From Saprospiraceae bacterium (GTDB lineage: Bacteria > Bacteroidota > Bacteroidia > Chitinophagales > Saprospiraceae), in NCBI GenBank assembly GCA_016710625.1, contig JADJVK010000054.1:65040-129039 (forward strand): a DNA stretch of 64,000 nt, in the 5' to 3' direction. A program made the position numbers and the translations under genes. The notes beneath the pieces are model-generated. The model was not told the origin of the DNA. It ran no database searches and saw nothing but the letters and a program-made list of their open reading frames with translations. Below, piece after piece: positions 14,216 through 59,364 of the stretch (position 1 is the stretch's first letter; each line of letters opens with the position of its first letter).

Positions 14216-16100
14216 CGGGGGGGTTGGGTAAATATGCCCCCTTTTGTGGAATAAGACAACAGACCAGACAGTTTTTTCGGTTGAAGGAGGCATCTTTTTT
14301 TTCCCATCCATTCTATCATCGCGTATTTATTTTTCACGAGGGGGGGAGAGGAGAATTATGTGGGGTAGTGGGGGTTTTTATTAGAATGGTAGGTTATTTA
14401 ATTGTTGTAGCATTTCATGAGGGTAGAGGTAGAAATTTATTTAATTAATTGTTTTAGTAGAACAGCAAATATACAAAGTTAGTTTACAAATTACAAAAAA
14501 ACAAATATTTAAATTGGGAAAATTGGGAGTAGGGAGAATAGAGAGAAAAAAGGGATTTAAAAATAAAAGAAAAAATAAAAGATAACATAATTGGCAAGAA
14601 AAAATAATAAAAAAAAAAAAAAAAGTCCACTGGGGGGAAGGGTTTTGGGGGAAAAAAAAAAAGAGAAAAAATGGGGAGAGGGAAAAGAGGGTAGAAAAAA
14701 AAAAAGAAAAAAGAAAAAAAAAGAAAAAAGAAGAAAAAAAGGGAAAAAAAAAGGAAGATAGAGAAAAAAAAAGAAAAAAAAAAAAAAAAAGTTAAAAAAA
14801 AGAAAATAAGGAAAAGGGGTGAAAAATAAATTTTGAATATTTTTATGGGAGTTAAAATGGGGGGGCAACACGGTGGTGAAAAGTTTTTTTAAAAAGAGAA
14901 AAAAAAAAACAAAAAAAAGGGGTGGGAGACAATTGGGGAAAGTGAAGGGGCGGCGCGTGAAAGTTGGTGGGGGGGGGAGAAAAGAGTAAAGAGTAGAAAA
15001 GGAGAAGGGGAGGGGGGTGATAACAAATTTGGGGAAAAGTAAAAGTATTTTTTTGGGGAGATTTAAAAAAAAAAAAAGGAGGGGAAGAAAAGAAAAAAAA
15101 AAAGGGGGGGGGGGGAGAGGAGGGGGGAAAAAGGAGGGAGAAACGGAGTGTTAGGGGGGGGGGAACCAAAAAAAAAAAATAGGAAAGGAAAAAGAAAAAA
15201 AGGAAGGAGGGAAAAAAAAAGAAAAAAAAAAAAGAAAAAAAAAAAAAAAAAAAGTAATTTTTGGGGAAGGAGGAGGAAAAAAAGAAAAAAGGGGAAAAAG
15301 AAGAAAAAGGAAGAAAAAAGAAAAATTTGATTTTGAGAAAAGTGTGGGAATGTGTGAAAAAAAGGTGGCGAGGGGCAAGGAAAAAAAAGATTTGGGGGGG
15401 GGGAGGAGAAAAAAGAAAAAAAATTTTAGGGGAAGGGAAGGAGAAAAAAGAAAAAGGGAAAAAAAAGGAAAGGAGGGAAAAAAAGAAAAAAAAAATGAGG
15501 GGGGGGAAAAAGAAGGAAAGAGGGGGGGAAAAAAAGGAGAGTTTACAGAAAAAGAAAAAGGGAAAAAGAGGGGGAGGAAAAGTGAGGGGGGGTTGTTTGG
15601 GGGGAAAGGGGGGGGGGGAGCCGATTTGGAAATTTTTGAGAAAGTGTTTGCGTAAAAGGAAAAAAGGGAAAGAGGGCAGAGGAAAAAGTTGTGTATTGGG
15701 GTGGGGGAAAAGGGGGAGGGAGGTGGAGGGGGGGGGGGTTTCAGGGAGGGGGAGAGAAGGGGAAAGCAGGGGGGTGGGGGAGGAAAAGAAACGAATTGGG
15801 AGGGAGAGTAAGGGGGGGGGGAGAGGGGGGGGGGAAGGGAAAGGGAGGGGGGTAGGGAAAAAGGGGGGGGAAAGGAAAAAGTTGGAAGAGGGGGAAAAAA
15901 AAAAGTAGGGGGACGGGGTGGAGAGGGAGGGAGAAAGGAAAAAAAGAGGGAGAGGAAAAAAAGTTAAGGGGGAAAAGTTAAAGAAAAAAAAAAAAAAAAA
16001 AAAGGAAGGTTAAAGGGGGGGTTATTGGAGGGGGGGAAAAAAAGGGAAAAAAAAATGGGGAAGGAAAAAAAAGGGGGGGGACTGGCTGGCAGGAAAAAAG
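14216..16100. other. anomalous low-complexity tract: G-rich degenerate sequence at 14.2-14.5 kb, then about 1.6 kb of almost pure purine (G/A) on the + strand. Probably an assembly or basecalling artefact; no credible genes.
   Basis: Direct reading shows long runs such as aaaaaaaaaaaaaaaaa and gggggggggg and virtually no T or C from about 14560 to 16080. Every six-frame ORF here is K/E/G/R-rich on + or F/P/S/L-rich on -. Confidence 0.8.
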
Positions 16101-17177: not shown

Positions 17178-17340
17178 ACAGCCTTACACTTCCACTCTTC
17201 ATTTTAGGTATCTTATTTGCATTATATATTTCATAATTTTTATATTTTATTAATATTTGAATTTAATTTGTTGTAATTCAGTATTTTATAATATAAATAT
17301 TAGTTGTAAAGCAATTTATTATTGTTTTAAATTAACTATT

Positions 17341-20300
17341 ATGAAAGCAATTCTAACCTTTTTTGTATTATTTTTTTCAGTGAATTTATTTTCTCAAAAT
17401 TCCTATTTAGCTTATGAATCATTTGATGGATCAGCTGGATCTGCTCTAAATAGTGGTTCCAATGGTCAAGGATGGGGATCGACTTGGGAAGTACAAAATG
17501 GTGTTATCGCTGGTTATCTTTTTGATAATAACAGCTTGACTTACAATAATCTAAAGACAAATGGAAATAAACTTTCTGGAGGATATCAATATGTAACTTC
17601 TGGAAGAAATTTAGATTATCAAGATGGAGGAGATTTTGATGATTACGTAACAGGTGGTGATGCTATTGGTAGTACTGCTGGAACGACCCTTTGGGTTAGT
17701 GTTTTATTGAACAAACTTTCTAATAATAATGAGCCCATTTTTTTAGATTTACATAATGGAAATTTGAGCTGGTGCAACAATTGTACTACCAATAAAATTG
17801 GATTTGGCTACTTCGGTACTGCTTCAAATGTAAATAGTGATAAAAGATGGTCCATCAGGATTGGGAATACAGTTTATAATTCCTCAGTTTCTTGTGCAGT
17901 TAATTCCGCTACATTATTGGTACTGAAAATTACTTTTGGAGCCAACAAAACAGATTTTGATCTTTATGTGAACCCTACAACTATTGGAAATTCAGGAACG
18001 CCAGCTACCACATCCTTATCTCAATCTACTTCAGAACTAATAAGAATCAAATCACTAGCCCTATATTTAGGTGATAATGCGAATAATGGTTATGCTGATG
18101 AAATCAGGTTTGCTAAAACTTATGCAATTGCTACAGCAGATCAAAATGTAGCTATCAATTTGCCACCCATTGCTCGATTTTCATATTCTCCTATTTCTGG
18201 TCAGGCACCTGTAACTGTATCAGTAGATGCTTCCTCATCAACGGATCCGGAAGGAAATCCATTGACATATTCTTGGAATTGGGGGGATGGAACGCCCAAC
18301 TCAACCAATCCAGTAACAACACATACCTATGCCCCAAATATTACTGGATTGATTACCATTGAACTAACTGTAAAAGACAATTTTAATTTAAAGAATTTTA
18401 CCAACAAAACAATACCTATTTATTTGCCGGGTACTAATTATTTCCCATGCCAAAGCTCCGCAACTTCGTTGAGTGAAGCTACATGTAGCCAGAATAATGG
18501 GAAAGTTAGAATCAATGCAGGAATTGCATTGAATCCTACCTATTCGTTTAAAAATGGTAGTGGAATTGATATGCCATTGATCAATGGAAATGAATTTCAG
18601 AATTTAGCTGCTGGAAAATACAATGTAACAGTAACAGGTTCAAATAGTTGTAAAGATATTTTTACATTGACAATGACGACTGATTCTTCTACTTGTCCAG
18701 GATGGTCGCCCAATATGTGTAAAATGGCAATTGGAGTGAATGTAAATGGCTTATCTGACTGGAACTGGGAACATGCTTTTGTGAATCGTTACAAACATGT
18801 CAGAGAAGATTTAACAACTTTTCACGATGGATGTAATTGCTGGGATTCTAACGTTAGTAGCCAAATTAAAGTAGATGAAAATGGCTACCCAATAGGATTG
18901 CCACAAATAACAACTGCATCTAATGCAACAAAAGTTCGGTTTATAATTTCTGCTGATGCAGGAAATCTGAAACCCAACGAACAATATGTATTTTTATATG
19001 ATGGCATCGGGACTTTCACATTGAATGGAGCAGATATTGTGAGTAACACAAAAGGTAGGATGTTGTTTAATGTGCCAGCCACATCTGGAAACATTTGGTT
19101 GGATGTATCTTATTCGCAGCCAGATGATTATATTAAGAAATTTTCGATTGTTGAAAGCATCTGAAGAATTTATTGACTTAAGTACGAATACTTTTAATAC
19201 GACATTTTTGAGTCGATTATCTCCATTCAAAACTATCAGATTTATGGATTGGGGATCTACAAATGGGAATAAATTGACCAAATGGGAAGATAGAAAATTA
19301 CCAACCCATAGAACATATTCAGGGTCGAAAGGCGTTCCATATGAAATGATGATTCAATTAGCAAACAAAATCCAGAAAGATGTTTGGGTTTGTGTTCCTC
19401 ATTTAGCAGATAGTAATTTTGTAGTTGAAATGGCAAAATTATTTAAAAATAATTTGAACCCAAATTTGAAATTATATCTGGAATATAGCAATGAAGTATG
19501 GAATTGGCAATTTGAACAAGCCCAATACAACAACTTAAATCGTCCTTTGAATATCAATTATGGTAGAGCTTATGGAGAAAAATCTAAACAATTATTCAAA
19601 ATATGGCAATCTGTTTATGGAGCTGAGATGAATAGAGTAGTGAGGGTAGTCGGACTGCAAGGAGGTTATAATTATCTGAATGAGCAAATTATGTCTCAAT
19701 TAGCTGATAATGATTGGGATATGGCATCTTTGAGTTACTATTTTGGGTTGGACCATTCTGCTTCTGGAAATCCAGTTTTAAATGCAAGTTCAACAGGAGA
19801 AGATGTGAATAGAAATGCAAGAAATTTATTTTTTGGAACAGGAAATTGGTGGAATAATGTTAAACAAGATTATAGAACTATAAAAATGTTTGGAAAAGCG
19901 ATATCAAGTTATGAAGGTGGACCACATTATACTGATTTTCAAACACATCCGTATCAGCATGCTATGTATGATGCTCAATATTTGCAAAGTATGTATAGAA
20001 TGTATGATGATGTGTTGGATTCTATAAGAGCAATGGGTAATCAATTGGCAATGTCATTCACCTTATCTGGCGTACAAGAAAGTGTGTATGGATCTTGGGG
20101 ACATCTTCCAGATATTTATATGAATCCACCATACAAAACAACTGCTCCAAAATATCAAGCAGTTTTAGATAATTCTTGCTTGACTTTCAATGACTTATAT
20201 CATGGGCAACCACTGGAATTTTATGCACCAAATGTGGTTGCAAAACCAGGGGATACGGTATGTTTAGAAGTGAAAGTGAAAGATTTTATCAATATAACAA

Positions 20301-21160
20301 GTGGTCAATTAACAATGTCATTTGATACAAGTGTAATGAAATACTTGTCCATTAAGCCTGGAAATATTTTAGGTGTTTCTACTGGAACATTTGGGACAGT
20401 TCCTAGTTTGGTGAATAGAGGAAAAATTACAATGGCTTACGATGCTCCAGCTGGAAGTTTACCGGATGGTATCACTACTTATGATGGTGCTATTTTTTGT
20501 AGAATTTGTTTTAAGGTAAATAATTATGTGGCACAAGGAAAATTTTCCCCAATTGCTTTTGACGGTTCATTAACAAATATCTTTTTTGAAAACAAAGGCG
20601 GAAAAGTAGATTTTAAAAATACTGATGGTAAAGTATTGATAGATAGTAAATTGAGTGTCAATGAAAATCTTATTTTTGAGGTTCAACTAAAAGATAAAAA
20701 CAATGCTGAATTAAGTTGGCTCAATCTTTATGCTAAAAATGCATTTGGATTTGTGGTAGAAAAAAGTAATGATGGCGTAAATTTTACTGCAATTTCATTT
20801 GTTGAAGCCAATAAAACAAATAGTAATATCTACAATTTTATAGATAGTAATTTGAGAAATGGGCAATATTATTATAAGATAAAAATGATTCTTCAAGATC
20901 AATCTTATAATTATACTGAGGTAAAAAGCATCAATGTTTATCAAGATAACGAAATCGTAATTATCCCAAATCCAGTTTTAAATGAATTTAGTGTACAAAT
21001 TGAAAATAAATTACAACCATTTGAAATTTGTAATCAACTAGGTCAAGTAGTGAAATCTGGTGAGTTTATTCCGTCTGTAATCAATGTAAGTGATTTGATT
21101 TCAGGATTTTATTATCTAAAAATCAATGGTTCAACGACGAAATTTATAAAAGTCGATTAA
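17341..21160 (+). CDS. large T9SS-secreted multidomain protein (PKD domain, possible glycoside-hydrolase-like TIM-barrel region, cohesin-like domain, type-A CTD), split by a frameshift at about 19070-19164
   Basis: ORF 17257..19164 has its signal peptide at the M at 17341 and a PKD motif (PVTVSVDASSSTDPEGNPLTYSWNWGDGTP). ORF 19070..21160 overlaps it in frame +1 and ends IIPNPVLNEFSV...GFYYLKINGSTTKFIKVD. Confidence 0.6.
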
Positions 21161-47271: not shown

Positions 47272-49094
47272 ATGAAACATTATTTCAGGTTACTTAGATA
47301 TCTAATTCCTTATAAATCAAAGGTTATTTCCTCCATAGTTTTGAATATTCTAACGGTTTTCTTTTCGTTAGGATCCATTGCTATTATTATTCCTGTACTT
47401 AAAATAATTTTTAAAAACATAACTATAACTCCTGATAAACCCATTTACAACGGAAATATAAAAACTTACTCAGAGCAAATTTTAAATTATTATATCTCCT
47501 TTTATGCCAATCTGAATGGACCATTTTATGTCTTATTGTGGGTGGTGGGTATTGCAGGATTTTTATTTCTTTGCAAAAATGTATTAAGATATTTTGCTGA
47601 AATATTACTTGTAAACATCAAAAATGGGGTAGAAAGAGATATTCGAAATGATTTGCACCGAAAAATATTAGAGATGCCGATTGCTCAACTGACTGAGCAA
47701 AGAAAAGGGGATTTGATGGCTCGATTAACGAATGATATTTTAGAAATTCAATGGGCAATTTTCAGCTCCATCCAGCGGTTGATTCAGGATCCCTTGATGA
47801 TTATTCTTACAGTCATTGTGTTGATTTTCTTTAGTGCAAAACTGACAGTATTTGTCATCATTTTGATTCCAATTACGGGTTTGGTGATTACCTCTTTGGG
47901 GAATAGTTTGAAAAAACCTTCGGAAAGAGCCAAAGAAGAATTGGGCAAAATAATGTCTCATATTGAAGAAAATATTGGTGCTTTGTCTGCCATTCGTTCC
48001 TATGTTGGGGAAGATAGGATTCAGAAGAAATTCGAACAAAGCAATCAACATTATTTACAGCAATGAATCAAATGCTGTATAAAAGAGAGCTTTCTTCTCC
48101 AGTAAGTGAAGTGATGGGAACTTTAGTAATGTTAGCCATTATTACTTATGGTAGTTATTTGATTATCAATTACAAAGAGCTAGAACCAGAGGTTTTTATA
48201 ACCTATATTACCTTATTTTATCAAATCATTAATCCTGCAAAATCGCTTTTCAGTAGCGATCTATGATATCAAAAGGGAGAGGCTTCTTCATCTCGGATTT
48301 TTTCTTTGTTAGATGCACCTAATCCATTGAAAGACAAGGATAATGCACTTGCTATCAACACATTCACTGATTCTATTGCCTTTGAAAATGTGTATTTTAG
48401 TTATATTGAAGAAAAAATTGCAGTTGAAAACTTCAATTTAACAATTAAAAAGGGTGAAACTGTGGCTTTAGTGGGGCAGTCGGGTAGTGGAAAATCTACA
48501 ATTGCAGCACTTCTCAATCGTTTTTATGATGTCGATAAAGGCTCCATTAAGATTGATGGCCATGATTTGAGGGATTTGAAACAACATGATTTCAGAAAAA
48601 TGATCGCCTACATACCGCAAGAAGCACATTTGTTTAATGATACGATTAAAGAAAACTTATTACTCGGAAAACCAGATGCAAGTATGGAGGAAATTATCCA
48701 TGCCTGCAAAGTCGCCAATGCCTACGATTTTATTACTGAAACAGAAAATGGATTTGACACTACGATCGGAGATAGAGGGAGTAAACTGAGTGGGGGACAG
48801 CGACAAAGACTAACGATTGCTAGAGCTGTTTTGAAAAATCCACCTATTTTATTATTGGATGAGGCGACTTCTGCTTTGGATGCAGAATCTGAAAAATTAG
48901 TACAAGATGCACTGAACAAACTTCTGACAAACAGAACTTCAATTGTGATTGCTCATCGATTTAGTACTATCAAAAATGCAGATAAAATAGTGGTGATGAA
49001 AGAAGGTAATATCATAGAAGTAGGAAATCATGAATCACTTGTAAAAAAAGAAGGGGAATATTATAAATTAGTTCAATTGCAAGGATTAGAGTAA
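47272..49094 (+). CDS. MsbA-like ABC transporter (fused permease + ATPase), split into three ORFs by frameshifts
   Basis: ORF 47272..48066 is the six-TM domain. ORF 48063..48266 is the TMD tail. ORF 48306..49094 is the NBD, with Walker A GQSGSGKST, LSGGQRQR signature and Walker B ILLLDEATSALD. Confidence 0.75.
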
Positions 49095-49140: not shown

Positions 49141-49803
49141 ATGCTCAAATATTTATACTTATCAATACTTATTTTTGTGATTAACATAGGTTTATCGCAG
49201 AATGACTGGGTATTTAAGGGAAAAAAAAGTAATATAAATATCTATTATAAAAAAACTGCGGATGTGTATGATTTAAAGCTTACTACATCTGTTCGTTCGT
49301 CTGACGAAGGTTTTATAAAATTATTATCAGAAGTAGAAATGTTTCCGAATTGGATTTATAAAGTAAAATCATCCAGACTTATTAAAAAAATTAGTGAAAC
49401 AGAAGGGATATATTACATTTTACTCGATTTTCCTTGGCCCCTTAATGATAGAGATATGGTGATGCACTACCATCTCGAAGTGGACAAAAAGCATGAAATT
49501 ATCTATTCTCGTTCGTATGCAGAGCATGATATAGTGCCTGAGGTAAAAGATGTCATCAGAATTACCAATGCAAAACTAGAATGGAAAATATTCAAACAAC
49601 AAAATGAATACGTTTATTTTGAGTACACCAACCACTCTGACCCTGGAGGCAAAATCCCAGACTGGCTAGTCAATTTGGTTTTAGACAAAGGACCCATAGA
49701 GACCATCAAAAAGATGAAAACCTACCTAGAAAAACCAGAATATTTTTTGGAGAAAAAAAGGTTTTTTGATGAAATTGAATTAGTTCTAGTAATCAATTTT
49801 TAA
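49141..49803 (+). CDS. secreted START/SRPBCC-domain (lipid-binding) protein
   Basis: 220 aa. Signal peptide followed by a START-like core (LSEVEMFPNWIYKV...DRDMVMHY...GGKIPDWLVN). Confidence 0.6.
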   Translation: MLKYLYLSILIFVINIGLSQNDWVFKGKKSNINIYYKKTADVYDLKLTTSVRSSDEGFIKLLSEVEMFPNWIYKVKSSRLIKKISETEGIYYILLDFPWPLNDRDMVMHYHLEVDKKHEIIYSRSYAEHDIVPEVKDVIRITNAKLEWKIFKQQNEYVYFEYTNHSDPGGKIPDWLVNLVLDKGPIETIKKMKTYLEKPEYFLEKKRFFDEIELVLVINF

Positions 49804-50071
49804 TACAATTTAATTTAACAATAATATCTTCGAATGCATATTTGTGAACTCGATTTTCTATTTGTAAATATTAGATTTTGAGCTAGTTAAAAGATATGAT
49901 TATAATTGTCATTTAAAAATAAATTTTTAAATATTAAATAATATCAAAATTAAAAGTGATTAATATGATATTTCAATTTATTTTTAATATAAATCTTTTT
50001 TCTAATTTAGTTATTTATATGAACTAATATTAAATGTTTTTAAATAACTATTATTAAATTTTTATTTAGTT

Positions 50072-53000
50072 AGTGATTTCTAATATTTCAACAAAGTTGT
50101 CAAGGTTTCCAATTTTTACAATATCACCAATTGTGTGTCCAATAAATGAAATTGCTAAAGGTGATTTGTAATATATATTCTGTATACCATTTTTAATTTC
50201 GTTTTTGCCCTGTTCGGTTTCAATTATCAAAAAAGTCAAATCCTTTCCATTGTTGTATTTTACATTAATTTTACTGTTAATTTTTACTTGATCAGTTAAT
50301 ACCTTTGTCGATACAACTTTTGTTTATCCAATACTTTGTATAATTTCATTGTCTTTCTCTATATCTATAAAAGATGTTTGTAAAACATATTCTTCTAATA
50401 ATTCTATGTCATCTGTAAATGCAGATGATATATTTGAATGACTTTTTAAACTATGATTAGACGATTCAATTTGTTTAATAAATGATATAAGATTTGTAGT
50501 TTCTCTTCTTGGGTTGTCCCACCAATTTGTACTCCAAATACGATGAAAAACAAAACCGTGGTCTTCTAATATTTTCTGTCGATGTCTGTCATACAAATAA
50601 GCTTCTCTGCTTGAATGCCATTTTGCTCCATCACATTCTATTGCAATTTTTGGAACTCCTATTATTTTTGGGTCGTAAACTAAATCAATTCTAAATTCAG
50701 AAACTTTTACTTGTGGAAATAAATTTTTGTCGCCCAATTCATCAACAAGTCTTTGATAAACTTCTTCTTCAAAAGGCGATTCTAACTTATCTAAAACATC
50801 AGGATTAATCACAACACTTTTATTGTGTATTCAGCAAGTGAAGTTAAAATTGAAACTCTCAATTCATTATTACTTTCACTAACAGCTTTTGAATATGCTA
50901 AATAAGCATACAACACTGCTCTTTTGTTATTTGAGCCTTCTGTCGTCAAATATGATTTGTAGTCATAAAAACTTTTTCAGGTATTGAAGTACAAACATAT
51001 ACTTTGTATTTTGCTCTAGTAATAATTACATTTAAGAGTTTATATCCATTTGTATGGTTTATTGGACCAAATCTCTGAGCAAATTTACGGTCTTTTCCAA
51101 TACCATAAGTAGTTGATAAAATGATTACATCACGTTCATCTCCTTGGATATTTTCCAAGTTTTTAATGAACATTCCAGTTTCTTCTTACTCTTGAATCTT
51201 GCTGTTAAATTCTTCAAATTTTGTAAATTTTTGTCTCTCTATAATTTTTCTCTTTATTAAATCTCGTTGAGCAATATTAAATGTTGCTATACCAAGTGTC
51301 GGATATTCACCATTTGGTAATCGATTAATATTTTTGTCAATTATTGACAATACCATTTCTGCTTCTGCTTCGTTTGTATGTTCTGAAAAAGTACCATTTA
51401 CTTGAATATATTTTATTGGTACATAATCAAAATTTGCTGGCAAAGGTTTTAACCTTTGGTCGTAAAAAGCATAATTTGAAAAGTCAATTAAAAAAGGATG
51501 CCTTGACCTGTAATGAAAATCTAAATGTTGTTTATCAAATTTTAGTTCTGTTCCAAATTCAAGTAATGATTCACAAGAAAGCAATAAGTTATCTCTATCT
51601 ACAACAATTTTCTCTTCTTCAATATCATCCTCGTCTTCAACTTCTCCATCAAAAACTTTGCTGAAATAATTTGATGGTGGCATTTGATGTTCATCGCCTG
51701 CAATAATTATTTGTTTACCTTTCAAAATCGCTGGCAAGTTATCTTCAAGTCGTAATTGACTGGCTTCGTCAAACATTACAATGTCAAAATAACCATTCAT
51801 TCCTTTAAACAAGTTACTTGCAACATCTGGTGAAGTTAAAATTATTGGAAAGAAACTTGTAAATAAATCGGAATCATATTGGAACAATTTGTCTTAATGA
51901 AAGACGTTTGAATCTTGGACTACTTCTTTTATTGTATAAATTTTCTACAGATAAATTACTATTACGTTGCTCAAAATCTCTAGATTTGTCAATCTGTTTC
52001 GAATACCAAAAATCTTTAATATATTTTAATTGTTCCCTCTCTACACTTTTTAATGTTGTGTCTAATTCAATGTGGTCATTTTCGTTTATAGGCAAATCTA
52101 TATTTGCAGATGAAAGCAATAATGAATGCAAATAATGAATTAAAAATGTTTTACGCCAATTTTCTTTGCCAATTAATTCGTTTACAATTGCTTTATCATC
52201 TGTATTTAAAGAATTGAAAAATTGAAACCACCTAAATTCAATTGAGAAATTGTCTTGTTCAGAATCAAAATATTTATTCTTTTTGGATATTGTACTTTCT
52301 ACTTCTGAAATGTATTTATTTAGGTCATTAAATTTTGGTTGTTCCGAAATCCAATTATCCGTATTAATTTTTTTTGTTAAATAGTTAACTTTTTCTTGAA
52401 GAATTGGTAAGTTTTTTAATTCCATTTCACTTGGGCTTGTTTGTAGCAAACTCAATTTCTGAAACTCTGATTGAATTTTAGAATCAAATTCATTTTTTAT
52501 TGCTTCTATTTTTGCAAATACTTCATCAAAAGACGCAGTATTTTCTGTGTAGCTTTTTGCAAAGGAATATGTAAAATTTAGGTCTTTATGTGTGGTTAAA
52601 TTATTTTTTAACTTTTCAAAATCAGAAATTAAATCGCTTTGAAGATTTGAAAAATTGTTTTTTATTTCAAGTAAGTGCTTTTGAAATTCATTAGAATTTT
52701 GAGAATTATTTATTTCTGTATTTAATGACTGAAACTGATTTGATGATTCGTTTATATTTAAAATCAATTGAAGATTAAAATTATCAAATTCAGTTTCTAT
52801 TTTTTGATTAAAGTAATTCTTTACTCTATTTAATTCTGATTTGTAATAGTTTAAAACATTTAGTTTTTCAGCTAATGAATCTTTAAAATCTGCATTGGGA
52901 AAATCCTTTGCATTTTTAATTTCTACTTCCAACTTCTCAAAATGTTTTTTGAGTGAATAATGGTCTGCAATAGTTTCCTTTTTTGCCTTTGAGAAAATAG

Positions 53001-54886
53001 AAAAGAATTTATAGCTAAAACTATTGATTTTAGTTTGGTCTTTTATTTCTGCATTATTTTGTTCTTTTCAAAATTACATCAATTGTTGAAATAATATTTG
53101 TAATTACTTTCTTGGTTATTTAGTTCCAAACTACGGAAATTGGCGTAGCTAATTTTTGTTGTTTGAATTAACTTTTCAATTTTGATTCATACGAAATAAT
53201 TTCTGAAATTAATTCAGTTATTGACTTTATTTGCTTTGAAAAATCAGCCTTCCTTAAATCAAAATATTCAGTTTTATTCGCCTCTAAAAGTTTTTTTATA
53301 CTTTCAACTTGCAGTTGATAATTATCAAAATCATTGTTTATGTTCTGCTTTATCAAATATGGATTTTCGCCTATTAATTTTTGAGAATTCAAAAAAGAAC
53401 ATGATTGAATTGGCAAATAATCAATGTGTGTTTGATTTCCTTTTTGAATTAAGTCAAGATAATTATTTAGTTCTTTCGTAGAATATTCAAATTTCTCTTT
53501 GTCAATATTTAATTTTTGAGATTGATTTTGGCTTTTATTTTCTTTCAAATATTGCCCTACAATATTTGTCCAATTTTTTGAACCTAAAATTTCTTGACCA
53601 ATTTTTTGATGTTTTTTGTTGATACTTGTGATTAAATTCTTCGCTTTTTGCAAAATCGTTTCTAACGATTCTTTGGAATAATTATAACGATATTTTTTAT
53701 ATTCATAATCATCAACTCTGTCTCTAACAGAATCAACAACGGTTTTTCTATCTTTTACAATGTCCCTAATTAATACAATATTGTTGTTTAATCCTTTTTC
53801 AATTAGAGCATTATGTAAAACTTCAAGTGCAGTTCTTTTTTCACAAACTACAATTGTCTTTTTGTTATTTTCAAGTGCATTGATAAGTACTGCTGTAAGT
53901 GTTTGGCTTTTTCCTGTTCCTGGTGGTCCTTGAATTAATAAATTTCGTTTGCTCTCTAACGAATGTAAGATGCTTTGTTGCGATGGGTCTGTTTCAACTG
54001 ATGAAATTGGTTGAAATGAATTTCCTTCTAAATCTTCAAGGTTTATTTCTTGTTCTTCGAGTTTTAAAAGCTCATCAAAGTCGTTAATTATATTTTGTTT
54101 TTGAACCTCAAATATTGAAAATAGACCACTAAAATCAATTAGTGAATTTGAAAAATTAAGTGGTAATTTTTCATAATGATTTTTATCTCCAATAGATTTT
54201 ATATTTTCAAGGTTCTTTTCAAAAGTTTGTTTTAAATCATCTGGTACAGATGTATTTATTGAATTGATTAAGTTAGTACAAATCTCAATTAATTCGCTTC
54301 TTTCAATAAGTCCATCATCAAGCATTTCACTTGGTATTTGGTCTATGGCTACATTTGCATCGCTTTGCAAATGATTTATCAAAACTTCGTTTATGTAAAT
54401 TGGGTCTTCTTCATTTCTTAATATTTCCCATGTGTTGAATTCTTTTGTTCTTTTGATTCGTAATGACCAAATCAGAATAGGTGCAACTGTCAATTTGTTA
54501 TCCGCTTTATCTCGTCTTGCTAAAATTGGAAAACCAAATCCAAAAGTATTTATTCCCTTTTCGGATTCAATTGCTTCTGTCTGATTGATTAGGATTTCAA
54601 ATGCTTTTGTAATTTTTACAAGTTGAGCCTGATCATCTTCATATAAAGAAAACAAGTCTGGTACATTATTCTTCCAACTTATTCTAAATTTTAAAATTTG
54701 TTGAGTTAGTAATTCGGAAATAAAATTATTCGGTATGTTTTTATCAATATGTGAAAGTCTATATAAGTCAAACTTATATTTTGATTTTGATGGTATTGCA
54801 TTTAAATGAACACCTCGACGGTTTCCTATCTTAAGTCTTCTTTGTAGTTCTATTAAGAATTTCTTTGTTAATTCCATATTTATCAA
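50072..54886 (-). pseudogene. fragmented giant SF1 (Upf1/DNA2-like, AAA_11/AAA_12) helicase with a C-terminal DUF559 restriction-endonuclease-like domain and a GreA-C-like tail
   Basis: 53168..54886: N-terminal region plus Walker A LIQGPPGTGKSQT. 51874..52932: N/K/S-rich linker. 51186..51887: motif II DIVMFDEASQ plus AGDEHQMPP. 50946..51173: motifs V/VI QGDERDVIILS, NVIITRAKYKV. 50324..50812: DUF559/Vsr-like IAIECDGAKWHSSREAYLYDRHRQKILEDHGFVFHRIW. An unlisted ORF at about 50072-50320 reads ...SPLAISFIGHTIGDIVKIGNLDNFVEILEITN. Confidence 0.65.
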
Positions 54887-55225
54887 AAAGAGTGTTTCTA
54901 CGATCTATTAATAATTTCTTTCACAAGTTTTAATTTTTTACAATTTAAATATAAATAAGTTTATAGTTTTAAATTAAATAGTAAATGAAGCAGAATTTAA
55001 TATTTAATTTTTATATATGTATTTAAATTTATATATATTAAACATCAAATATATAAATAACTAAAATACATTTTACACAAAATATACAAATAAATATTAA
55101 AATATTAAATCAATTAACATTTGTTAACTGTTACTAAAAGGTTAATAAATTGATATATAAAATCTAATTTTATTGATAACAGAATTCTTAGTCTAGACAA
55201 ATGAGAATTCTGAACTTTCAATTTT

Positions 55226-56112
55226 TTATTCATCAATCTTTTCCAAAACTACAGGATTAGCAATATTCGAAAAATCGCCATTGATGTAGTGGATGATATT
55301 TTCAAAAGCTGTTCTGAAATATAATTCATATCCGTTTTGCTCCACATAGCCTAAATGAGGGGTACAAACAACATTGTCCATATTAAGCAATTCATAGTTG
55401 GTGTCATAGATGGGTTCATTTTCATAAACATCCACTCCGACAAATATTTTCTTTCCACTTTTCAGTACATTCAAAAGAGCATTTGGTGCAATCAATTCTG
55501 CTCTAGCGGTATTGATTAAAACTGCATTTTCCTTTAAGTTTATCAAATCACTTTCTGCTACAATACCGAAAGTAGCATCATTCAATCGTAGATGCAATGT
55601 AACAATATCTGCATTTTTGAAAAAATATTCTTTGCTCTCTGCTTTTTGGAAACCTGCTTCTACCGCTTTATTTCTGGATGCTTCACTTCCCCAAACCAAA
55701 ACATTTGCTCCAAAAACTTTTGCATACTGTGCTATTTTTTGACCTATCTTTCCATAACCCCAAATGCCAATAGTTTTTCCATGAATTGATGAACCAATGT
55801 TAATTTGCCACTGTCCTTTTTTCATCCCATCAATAGCTTGTGGCACTTTACGAACCGTATTCATCATTAATAACCAAGTTAATTCTGCAGGAGCAATTGG
55901 AGAGCCAATGCCTTCTGCAACAGCCACATTATATTTGTTGCAAGCTGCAAGATTTAAATGATTGGAAATCTTTCCAGTCTGACTAATGAGCTTTAGATTG
56001 GGTAACTTACTTAGTAAATCCTCAGAAATTTCAGTTCGTTCTCTGGTTAACACCAAAATTTCAGTTTCCTTTATGAGTGCTGAAAGTTTTTCAGTATAAT
56101 AGTAATTTTCAT
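55226..56112 (-). CDS. D-isomer-specific 2-hydroxyacid dehydrogenase (NAD-binding); N-terminus frameshifted
   Basis: The listed ORF starts at TTG. Upstream, MKITIILKNFQHS* reads in another frame. GIWGYGKIGQKIA Rossmann motif, and catalytic His in CTPHLGY. Confidence 0.7.
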
Positions 56113-56344
56113 TTTACATAAAATTTTATACTTTAAATAAAAACCACAAATTATATTTTATATAATGTTGAAATTGAAAAAAAGTAAACTTGAACTTTTA
56201 GAATTTTTTATTTAAATTATTGGTCTCTTTTTTTTCAAAAAATAGTATAGAATTGAATCATCTTAAAACGTTTTAATCAACATAATTAATTTATTGTCTT
56301 GGAATTTTAAGAAAATAATTAACAAAATCTTAATAATTAATTTT

Positions 56345-56816: not shown

Positions 56817-57857
56817 TTACAAGAAATTTATTACTTTTATAATAATACCAACAATCTCCCCAATATTTTCCATCTTATTAGGCAATAAATCCAAATTGGG
56901 TGCTTTTACAGTACCTAAAACTCTATCTGATTCAATGATGATTATTTCATCAAATACATTTTGGTCAATAAAAAATTGGAGTAGAGCTGCACCGCCTTCT
57001 ACGAGTAGTTTTCCAATATTCATTTGATATAAAGCTTTTAAAATGAGATTGATATGTGCTTCATTCATTGGAAAATCAATAATCTTTTGTTCACCAAGAG
57101 TAGGGTAGTTGGGCAGGGTGGAAATAATTATGCTTTTGTTGTTTTGGCGAATATTACTATTGATAGGCACCTTTCCATGCTGGTCAATAAAGATGGGAAT
57201 GGGCGATTTTCCATAAAATAATCGATTGTTCAATGTTGGATTATCAATCAACACCGTATTTGTCCCTACCATGATTCCATCCATTTCTGAACGGATTTGA
57301 TGTACAAATCGATTGGATAGGTTATTGCTTATGGCAATCTGCTCACCATTTTTAGATATAAATCCATCTTTTGTTTGTGCCCATTTGAGGGTAATATATG
57401 GTTTTTGCTGCAAGATATTTTTTGTAAAAGAGCTAATTAAAGCATTGCCCTCATTTTCTAAAATGCCCTGAACTACTGCTATTCCAGCAGCTTTCAATTG
57501 TGCAATCCCATTTCCTGCTACTTTTGGATTAGGATCTAAGGTACTCACCACTACCTTTTTGACTTGATGTTGTATCAAAAGCTGAGTACATGGCGGTGTT
57601 TTACCAGTATGACAACAAGGTTCGAGACTTACATAAACTGTGGATTCGGTAAGTTTATATTTGTTTTCTGGGGTCACTGAAGCGATAGCATTGACTTCTG
57701 CATGAGCACCACCAAATTGTTGATGCCATCCTTCTCCAATGATCGTATTTTGATGGACAATCACACAACCAACAAGAGGATTGGGCGACACAGCACCCAA
57801 TCCTCTCTTGGCTAAATCAAAACATCTTTTGATAAATATTTCGTGATTTTCTTCCAT
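56817..57857 (-). CDS. ribD: bifunctional riboflavin biosynthesis deaminase/reductase
   Basis: 346 aa. HAEVNAI...PCCHTGKTPPC zinc deaminase motif, followed by a RibD_C reductase domain. Confidence 0.85.
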   Translation of the reverse strand: MEENHEIFIKRCFDLAKRGLGAVSPNPLVGCVIVHQNTIIGEGWHQQFGGAHAEVNAIASVTPENKYKLTESTVYVSLEPCCHTGKTPPCTQLLIQHQVKKVVVSTLDPNPKVAGNGIAQLKAAGIAVVQGILENEGNALISSFTKNILQQKPYITLKWAQTKDGFISKNGEQIAISNNLSNRFVHQIRSEMDGIMVGTNTVLIDNPTLNNRLFYGKSPIPIFIDQHGKVPINSNIRQNNKSIIISTLPNYPTLGEQKIIDFPMNEAHINLILKALYQMNIGKLLVEGGAALLQFFIDQNVFDEIIIIESDRVLGTVKAPNLDLLPNKMENIGEIVGIIIKVINFL

Positions 57858-59364
57858 TAATCCATCTTTTCTGGTCTTAGATGCGGAAAAAACAAAACTT
57901 CTTGAATGGTAGATTGATTCGTCATCAACATAGCTAATCGGTCAATTCCAAATCCGATTCCAGCTGTTGGTGGCATTCCATATTCTAGTGCTCTCAAAAA
58001 ATCGTGGTCGATGAACATCGCTTCATCATCCCCTCTTTCCATCAGTTTTACTTGCTCCTCAAATCGCTCTCTTTGATCTATTGGGTCATTCAATTCTGAA
58101 TAGGCATTGGCAACTTCTTTTCCATTGATCATCAATTCAAATCTTTCCACCAAACCTTCTTTGCTTCTATGTTTCTTTGTTAAAGGGCTCATTTCCACAG
58201 GATAATCTGTGATAAATGTAGGTTGGATATATTTTCCTTCACAGGTCTCTCCGAAAATCTCATCGATAAGCTTTCCTTTTCCCATGGAAGCTTCAGTTTC
58301 TATATGTAATTTTTTACAAACTGCTCTCAATTCTGTTTCATCCATTTGGCTAATATCGATACCAGTATGTTCTTGAATTGCTTCAAAAATCGTCACTCTT
58401 TGAAAGGGGCTTTGAAACTAATAGTGTGGTCACCAACTGTCAATTCAGTAGTTCCATGAATTGCTATCGCCACTTTTTCAAGCATTTCTTCGGTGAAATT
58501 CATCATCCAAAGATAATCTTTGTAAGCAACATAGAATTCAAGCACCGTAAATTCTGGATTATGCGTTCTATCAATTCCTTCATTTCTGAAATTTCTTGAA
58601 AATTCATACACAAAATCGAAACCGCCAACAATCAACCTTTTAAGATACAATTCGTTTGCAATTCTCAAATACATGGGAATATCCAAAGCATTGTGATGGG
58701 TAATAAAAGGTCTAGCAGCAGCACCACCTGGAATGTTTTGTAGTACAGGTGTATCCACTTCTAACGCCCCATGATTGTCTAAGAAATCACGGATTGTCTT
58801 AATCATTTTAGACCTTTTCAGGAAAGTATCTTTTACATTTTCGTTTACCGTCAAATCTACATAACGCTGTCTTGCCCTTAATTCAGGATCAGAAAATGCA
58901 TCGAAAATATGCCCTTCAGCATCTTTTTTCACTACAGGAAGTGGCTTCAAGGATTTGCTTAATAAAGTTACTTCTTTCACTCTAATGGTAATTTCACCCA
59001 TTTTAGTTCTGAAAGTTTCTCCCTTTATTCCGATATAATCACCTAAATCTAAATGTTTGGCAACTAAATGATCAAAAATCAACTCAGCTTGTTCCCCAAA
59101 ATCATCTCTTTTGAAATAAATCTGAATTCTACCGCTACTATCTTTCAATTCTGCAAAAATAGCTTTCCCTTGTCCTCTTCTACTCATTAGCCTACCAGCC
59201 AAACATACCTCTTGAAAATTTAGTGGTTCGTCAGTAAATTCATGTTTGATAGTGTTGGCAAAAGCATTTACATCATATAAAGGAGCTGGATATGGATTGA
59301 TACCCAAATTTATTAATTCTTGTAGGGATTCTCTCCGCACTATTTCCTGATCATTAAGCATCAT
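57857..59364 (-). CDS. lysS: lysine--tRNA ligase (class II), split by a frameshift at about 58393-58396
   Basis: ORF 58393..59364 is the N-terminal anticodon-binding domain plus the start of the catalytic domain. ORF 57857..58396 is the rest of the catalytic domain ([33 protein letters not shown]). Confidence 0.85.

Follow-up and report, generated by a model that had tools for sequence, protein, structure and literature searches.

The minus strand between positions 54877 and 50066 of a 64,000-nucleotide (nt) stretch of contig JADJVK010000054.1, deposited as a "Saprospiraceae bacterium", carries the remains of a single gene of 1,605 codons that specified a helicase-nuclease. This whole stretch is here called the window, and all positions are counted from its first letter. 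The gene as it stands cannot encode the full protein. Very probably it is a genuine pseudogene derived from a helicase-nuclease of the DUF4011 / Hhe / PADLOC PDC-S37 kind, encoded by one gene that moves horizontally. This ancestral protein of 1,605 residues comprises a weakly DUF4011-like N-terminus, a superfamily 1 (SF1) helicase split by an insertion of about 700 residues, a Vsr-fold nuclease and a tail resembling the C-terminal domain of the Gre factors.

Three-frame translation together with homolog alignment defines the limits of the gene. The start is the ATG at 54877-54875 (MELTKK...) and not the upstream TTG at 54886, and the terminal stop is the TAA at 50068-50066. An earlier sequence-only reading of this DNA had joined six minus-strand pieces into one protein of about 1,600 residues. 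These pieces all occur where it placed them, both in the list of open reading frames (ORFs) and in the three-frame translation, and hidden Markov model (HMM), homolog and fold searches bear out that they belong to one protein. The 1,605-codon frame further includes two bridging pieces absent from that reading, one in frame 2 (53186..53082) and the other in frame 1 (50976..50812). Intact homologs of 1,605 residues line up with the six fragments in order along 100% of their length, with 80-91% identity, and one of these, the protein P0001, shares 91.6% identity with the entire indel-repaired frame. A search with the concatenated fragments recovers thousands of relatives, among them many intact Bacteroidota proteins, with P0001 at the top (91% amino-acid identity). 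Nearly all of the best 120 relatives are single ORFs of about 1,600-1,615 residues matched at 100% query coverage; hence, the reconstruction as one protein goes far beyond chance.

Lesions were mapped in alignments of the window DNA, first with locus L001, which encodes P0001, and next with eight intact relatives whose nucleotide identity is 80-90%. This yields nine lesions, namely seven small indels and two in-frame TAA codons, where only four or five disruptions had been counted before. Every one of them is private to the window copy, with the intact state common to all eight relatives. Read along the minus strand, the first four cluster near the end of the N-terminal fragment: a 1-nt deletion (TTGG to TTG) at about 53177, a 2-nt deletion of AC outside any homopolymer at 53104 (GTAACATT to GTAATT), and two 1-nt homopolymer deletions, T5 to T4 at about 53073 and A5 to A4 at about 53060. 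These are followed by a 1-nt insertion at 51884 (TTG-TAC to TTGTTCC) and by a substitution-derived TAA at 51186..51188, where all eight homologs have TTA (Leu). A further 1-nt deletion lies within 50964..50975, the exact base being ambiguous in this interval, and another, outside a homopolymer, at 50818 (AAATAG to AAAAG). The last lesion is again a stop that arose by substitution, a TAA at 50324..50326 in place of the CAG or CAA (Gln) of all eight homologs. The net length of the indels is -6, and the first and last fragments are therefore in the same frame.

The break density thus comes to nine lesions in the 4.8 kb of the helicase gene versus about five to six in the other 59 kb, the latter being those encountered without a systematic screen, a difference of roughly 20-fold. 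This agrees with the earlier claim of a higher density in this gene, though not with the accompanying picture of an otherwise clean window. Four of the lesions are hard to blame on homopolymer miscalls, namely the 2-nt AC deletion, the loss of T from AAATAG and the two changes to TAA, from TTA and from CAA/CAG.

The substitutions tell a similar story of relaxed constraint. The window lineage shows 107 nonsynonymous and 154 synonymous changes (0.69) versus 30 and 113 (0.27) in the sister lineage (Fisher p = 4e-5), and its tip-specific nonsynonymous/synonymous ratio is 1.04, versus 0.42-0.53 for comparably short tips, so that the ratio on this lineage is raised 2- to 2.6-fold. The deviation at near-invariant sites is moderate: the window copy departs at 8 of 596 such columns, the seventh highest value of 99, versus a median of 2 in 98 intact proteins. 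It is also about 2.3 points more diverged from outgroups than its sister and, with only seven indels, has a substitution-to-indel ratio of about 16:1, a value usual for mutation and not for long-read noise. The pairwise omega between the window copy and P0001 is 0.09; this value, taken with the small number of deviations at near-invariant columns, indicates that the gene was inactivated fairly recently when measured against its 10% divergence from the closest relative.

The helicase and nuclease motifs that had been picked out by eye can all be located in the translation, and the catalytic ones are all still recognizable in the window copy. The first fragment (53171..54877; residues 1-569) combines a weak DUF4011 match with helicase domain 1A (AAA_11, 7.3e-11), including the Walker A motif GPPGTGKS at 53929-53906. 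Next, separating helicase motifs I and II, comes a long insertion rich in N, K, S and E (51885..53059); it matches no Pfam family and corresponds to a PDC-S37 coverage of about 580-900 in intact P0001. The next fragment (51189..51883) matches AAA_11/AAA_12 and PDC-S37 (6.5e-49) and contains the Walker B motif DEASQ (51770-51756), motif III AGDEHQMPP (51701-51675) and HYRSRH, and the one after it (50976..51185) holds motifs V and VI, QGDERDVIILS at 51146-51114 and NVIITRAK at 51032-51009. Together, the Pfam matches to AAA_11 and AAA_12 in both the window fragments and the intact homologs confirm the Upf1-like SF1 helicase core that had been proposed, and the IGHMBP2-family model TIGR00376 matches it at 4.8e-14.

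The nuclease domain (50327..50817) retains FRIDL at 50695-50669 and IAIECDGAKWHSS at 50647-50609. Its assignment to the Vsr type, with a conserved acidic active site, stands, through the Pfam family MTES_1575 (E 2.8e-27), whereas the DUF559 label attached to it earlier reaches only 19.9 bits versus a cut-off of 20.6. MTES_1575 has been defined as a novel Vsr-fold restriction-endonuclease domain and DUF3320 as a winged helix (PMC3710099). Among the other families named in the sequence-only reading, AAA_11 and AAA_12 are thus present and DUF4011 is borderline, with 23.2 bits in the window fragment versus a cut-off of 22.2, a sub-threshold 21.7 in the homolog P0100, no reported match in P0001, and precomputed annotation on only some homologs; DUF3320 was not found in Pfam scans of the window fragments and intact homologs.

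The C-terminal tail (50069..50323) had been thought to resemble the C-terminal fold of GreA/GreB, and both Pfam and fold comparisons uphold this. The tail scores 27.8 bits against PF01272 (GreA/GreB C-terminal), versus a cut-off of 26.9 (E 2.6e-6), and carries the motif SPLAxSxxGHxxGD at 50173-50108. When the 85 residues of the window tail itself were modeled with AlphaFold2, the mean predicted local distance difference test (pLDDT) score was 85.7, and the 14 best PDB neighbors of the model in Foldseek are the C-terminal domains of GreA, Gfh1, GreB and Rnk (TMq 0.61-0.76; root-mean-square deviation 2.0-3.6 A). A profile of 20 tails likewise places Gfh1 and GreA chains as the top four among PDB sequences, at E-values of only 0.05-0.1. 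The tail therefore shares with these C-terminal domains the fold and an SPxGxALxGxxxGD-like motif, whereas its sequence similarity to them is marginal (E 0.05 versus PDB; a Pfam score near threshold). The greA model is matched at positions 72-150 of 151 only, and what precedes the tail is the nuclease and a linker. In contrast to the Gre factors, the N-terminal coiled coil with its acidic tip is absent; hence, the Gre-like tail cannot act as a transcript-cleavage factor.

The kinship with defense families that had been suspected is evident from PADLOC, whose best model is the candidate system PDC-S37 (PDLC05009), at 485 bits for intact homologs, followed by Hhe at 266 bits. All helicase and nuclease fragments of the window match PDC-S37 in colinear order, and the match spans about positions 290-1370 of the model's 1550, leaving its C-terminal 180 positions unmatched. 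PDC-S37 (PADLOC-DB v2) is the best-scoring defense model for the family, but it is a computational candidate system only, for which no curated threshold is given. Among NCBIfam models, "anti-phage protein ProA" (NF058533) scores highest, with 446.7 bits over 292-1519 of the protein versus an equivalog cut-off of 1500, and Hhe (NF042953) reaches 356.8 bits versus a cut-off of 2000. With both scores far below the cut-offs, the family is a relative of ProA and Hhe and not an equivalog of either. Literature searches returned no paper describing or testing PDC-S37, none on ProA and no experimental test of this Bacteroidota family.

Hhe (NF042953; PADLOC PDLC02194) is one of the closest known systems. 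Like Hhe, the family's protein is one large chain that unites a Upf1-like SF1 helicase (AAA_11/AAA_12), interrupted by a long insertion, with a Vsr-fold nuclease bearing an (F)xIDL...IECDGAxYHS...RIWSTxW block; the DUF4011-type N-terminus of Hhe has a borderline counterpart here. Both are encoded by stand-alone genes in mobile contexts. P0001 aligns with a 1,911-residue Hhe from a Klebsiella plasmid, annotated by PGAP, at 33% identity over 504 residues, a span that extends from Walker B across the nuclease and takes in the IECDGA block. A tblastn search of plasmids finds distant relatives only (at most 39% identity), among them hhe genes on Klebsiella plasmids, and a phage search gave one weak match. 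There are also differences: the family's proteins have 1,605 residues versus about 1,800-1,900 in Hhe, the N-terminal and middle regions can hardly be aligned, the DUF3320/winged-helix region at the C-terminus of Hhe is replaced by the Gre C-terminal-like domain, and the family described here is Bacteroidota-specific. Hhe has been reported to protect against lambda, T3, T7 and PhiV-1 (bioRxiv 10.1101/2022.06.16.496414, citing Gao et al. 2020), an activity reportedly lost when the nuclease site is mutated (bioRxiv 10.1101/2022.06.16.496414).

Turning to its provenance, the gene has 27.3% GC versus 31.4% for the rest of the window, below every non-overlapping 4.8-kb window (minimum 28.0%, mean 31.5, standard deviation 1.5), and its third-position GC (GC3), at 0.18, is close to the lower limit for the host (0.17-0.29). 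The AT-richness remarked on previously is therefore real, but the compositional signal of foreignness within the window is modest. No tRNA, Rfam element, repeat or flanking-ORF integrase borders the gene within the window, where the flanking ORFs were scanned. As for the same locus in relatives, the dehydrogenase homolog at 79% identity sits in a different neighborhood, and the 98%-identical contigs are too short for an empty-site or intact-site comparison.

The family as a whole gives a more distinct picture. In blastn comparisons with nine relatives, homology is confined to about 54888..50064 and breaks off no more than about 11 nt from the ORF. The gene has a lower GC content than its flanks in 35 of 42 loci (mean difference 4.3 points; 32 points in one contig), and the family's genes stay at about 28-33% GC even where the flanks reach 46% (62% in one contig). 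Relatives at 65-69% protein identity were found in Flavobacterium, Chitinophagaceae, Saprospiraceae, Prolixibacteraceae, Sphingobacterium and Pedobacter. No conserved partner gene or operon emerged, the largest neighbor cluster being present in 4 of 31 loci. Near some intact copies there are integrases, resolvases, AbiEii-type ATPases, PD-T4-6-like kinases and Schlafen-like genes, and elsewhere ordinary metabolic genes; for example, the P0003 locus, on a 112-kb contig, has genes for a tyrosine integrase and for helix-turn-helix (HTH), PD-(D/E)xK and BRCT proteins on one side and for a serine resolvase on the other. As to whether intact orthologs lie in defense islands, intact copies exist, some of them in islands with integrases or resolvases, and many neighbors of intact copies are housekeeping genes. 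The family behaves as a mobile single-gene cassette. The proposal of a decaying, horizontally acquired gene of defense type is accordingly supported, with its foreign origin resting mainly on family-level evidence: homology stops at the limits of the cassette, GC is low in every kind of host and the genomic context varies.

Several individual loci deserve mention. In L004, L103 and L018, an ORF of about 485 residues and a serine resolvase come after the gene, and in L011, L022, L099 and L015, a recurrent ORF of 372-572 residues lies just downstream (one ORF further in L022); these neighbors recur without being general to the family and may mark particular types of island. A second ORF of 1,600 residues beside the gene in L029 was considered as a paralog and turned out not to be one. 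At positions 10001-14824 of L098 (Ga0164290_1000534), an intact family member of 29.5% GC lies within flanks of 61.6% GC, which represents either an extreme recent transfer or a chimeric contig.

The genes around the pseudogene bear on the quality of the assembly. The neighboring D-2-hydroxyacid dehydrogenase (55226-56222, minus strand) is 100% identical to MBK8724279.1 ("MAG: Saprospiraceae bacterium"), encoded on a 167-kb contig, and the window therefore comes from a metagenome-assembled genome (MAG). When compared to intact 325-residue homologs at 98-99% identity (P0121 on L085), this gene lacks about 88 nt (codons ~6-35); the deletion shifts the frame, and the NCBI annotation is a truncated protein of 282 residues. 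Relative to L085, the region upstream of the dehydrogenase is only 76% identical, whereas the gene itself is 98.7% identical. On the other side, an ATP-binding cassette (ABC) exporter (47272-49091, plus strand) is broken between its membrane and ATPase domains by a frameshift near 48040 and an in-frame stop at 48264-48266; it is probably a second pseudogene, separated from the helicase by one intact ORF, a START-domain gene (49141-49803). The lesions of the exporter and the dehydrogenase are not of the homopolymer-error type.

Further away, a class II aminoacyl-tRNA synthetase gene (57857-59364, minus strand; OB anticodon domain plus tRNA-synt_2, of the Lys/Asn/Asp type, with a Lys-type motif) is split into ORFs of 322 and 178 residues that overlap at 58393-58396, and reading through requires one extra A in an AAA run (A4 to A3). 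As the synthetase is essential, its split is more likely an assembly error than a mutation, and we consider it a probable one. At 17254-21157 on the plus strand, overlapping ORFs of 636 and 705 residues apparently form one large secreted protein with a 1-nt frameshift near 19,110 (GATTATATTAAGAAATTTTCG). Finally, the plus strand at 14500-16090 holds about 1.6 kb of low-complexity sequence made up almost solely of A and G (GC skew 0.93, AT skew 0.67). It lacks real ORFs and looks like noisy-long-read junk in the assembly and not biology. For this window, the helicase case is chiefly a caution that the assembly holds true pseudogenes as well as frameshifts of technical origin.

We also noted that the nearest relatives of the helicase are from Flavobacterium or from MAGs of Flavobacteriaceae, and that those of the dehydrogenase at 72-76% identity belong to Flavobacterium, Chryseobacterium, Elizabethkingia, Chishuiella, Myroides and Sphingobacterium, with one Saprospiraceae MAG at 72%. 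Judged by the nearest relatives of these two genes, the label "Saprospiraceae bacterium" would seem to fit poorly.

The clear signs of an error-prone long-read MAG assembly in the window lend the caveat about sequencing errors, raised in the sequence-only reading, more weight than it was given there. In its strongest form, the gene would be intact in the living organism and all nine disruptions would be consensus errors of a poorly polished metagenome assembly. Several observations do weigh against a pseudogene in this way. The window derives from a MAG with evident pathology, as seen in the poly-purine junk at 14.5-16.1 kb, the essential synthetase split at an A run and the one frameshift that interrupts the gene for the secreted protein (about 19.1 kb), and accessions of the MBK87... 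series presumably stem from a Nanopore activated-sludge MAG project. The helicase-nuclease gene is AT-rich, six of its seven indels are deletions, and three of the seven lie in short homopolymers (T5 to T4, A5 to A4 and GG to G). Moreover, searches of GTDB species representatives and Joint Genome Institute (JGI) metagenomes found no independent assembly with the same allele and no copy above 91% identity. Since a 1-nt homopolymer deletion elsewhere in the window is probably artifactual, helicase indels of the same type may be technical, and a minority of the 1-nt homopolymer deletions may indeed be assembly errors and not mutations. As an account of all nine lesions, however, this explanation appears improbable. 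Both stops arose by base substitution, and the 2-nt and lone-T deletions lie outside homopolymers; to produce the approximately 70 excess nonsynonymous substitutions, errors would have to run at close to 2%, but no more than seven indels are seen. Nor is the gene richer in homopolymers, with runs of at least 5 nt at 12.9/kb versus 12.1/kb in the window and runs of at least 7 nt rarer in the gene. Its break density is about 20-fold above that of the remaining window. The adjacent dehydrogenase, furthermore, is 98.7% identical and gapless over 872 nt to an independent k-mer (Illumina-type) assembly. The two substitution-derived stops, the 2-nt deletion and the nonsynonymous excess thus favor a true pseudogene. 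A split or recoded gene that still gives a functional product, through an alternative genetic code or programmed frameshifting, could draw on the net indel length of -6, which leaves the first and last fragments in one frame, and on the retention of all catalytic motifs. We reject it as having next to no probability: both internal stops are TAA, the gene's own terminal stop codon, seven frame changes at unrelated sites without a shared slippery motif would be required, the breaks fall inside the helicase core with one stop between motifs IV and V, and all 98 full-length homologs checked are single ORFs.

If the pseudogene is real, its parent need not have been anti-phage, and could instead have been a transcription or repair helicase-nuclease working with RNA polymerase through the Gre-like tail, for instance at R-loops or stalled complexes. 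The Gre C-terminal fold of the tail speaks for this, as does a weak fold match, at rank 17, to HelD, an SF1 protein bound to RNA polymerase. The same holds for the strong purifying selection, the 65-69% conservation across orders, the position of several loci among housekeeping genes and the NCBIfam equivalog cut-offs for ProA and Hhe, which are missed by far. A role in defense is also weakened by the status of PDC-S37 as only a candidate system, by the many housekeeping genes among the neighbors of intact copies and by a conservation that is unusual for a defense gene (pairwise omega about 0.09). On these grounds, the defense role is one that we infer and not one that is shown. Nevertheless, a transcription or repair function is the unlikely choice, given the patchy, context-independent distribution, the ORF-limited homology and the GC content below that of the host, the location of some loci within integrase/resolvase islands, the closest named relatives being Hhe, ProA and PDC-S37, a gene dispensable enough to decay here, and the lack of the Gre N-terminal coiled coil.

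Returning to the preferred reading of a decayed Hhe-like mobile gene, it would have reached this genome as an ORF-sized cassette, lost its selective value and then gathered the seven small indels, the two nonsense codons and the nonsynonymous excess, with the result that the protein would no longer be made. By analogy with Hhe, the intact protein is most likely a stand-alone defense enzyme that translocates along invading nucleic acid, driven by ATP, with the movement licensing the nuclease or carrying it to its target. Gre C-terminal domains bind the rim of the secondary channel of RNA polymerase, raising the speculative possibility that the Gre-like tail could dock the protein at this rim and tether it to transcription complexes. 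Somewhat doubtfully, we can envisage a distinct Hhe-like system of Bacteroidota in which a tail-docked helicase-nuclease couples its attack to the transcription of invading DNA or to interference with RNA polymerase by phages, and which has spread across orders as a one-ORF cassette at 65-90% identity.

The window copy itself is an ordinary decaying accessory gene of a known mobile helicase-nuclease kind. At the level of the family, a highly conserved Hhe-like protein of 1,605 residues that is widespread in Bacteroidota and moves as a single ORF is of mild interest. So is the replacement of the usual DUF3320 tail by a Gre C-terminal-like domain, which points to a connection between defense helicase-nucleases and RNA polymerase that can be tested, and this Gre-like tail of the intact family is the only feature that merits a specialist's second look.

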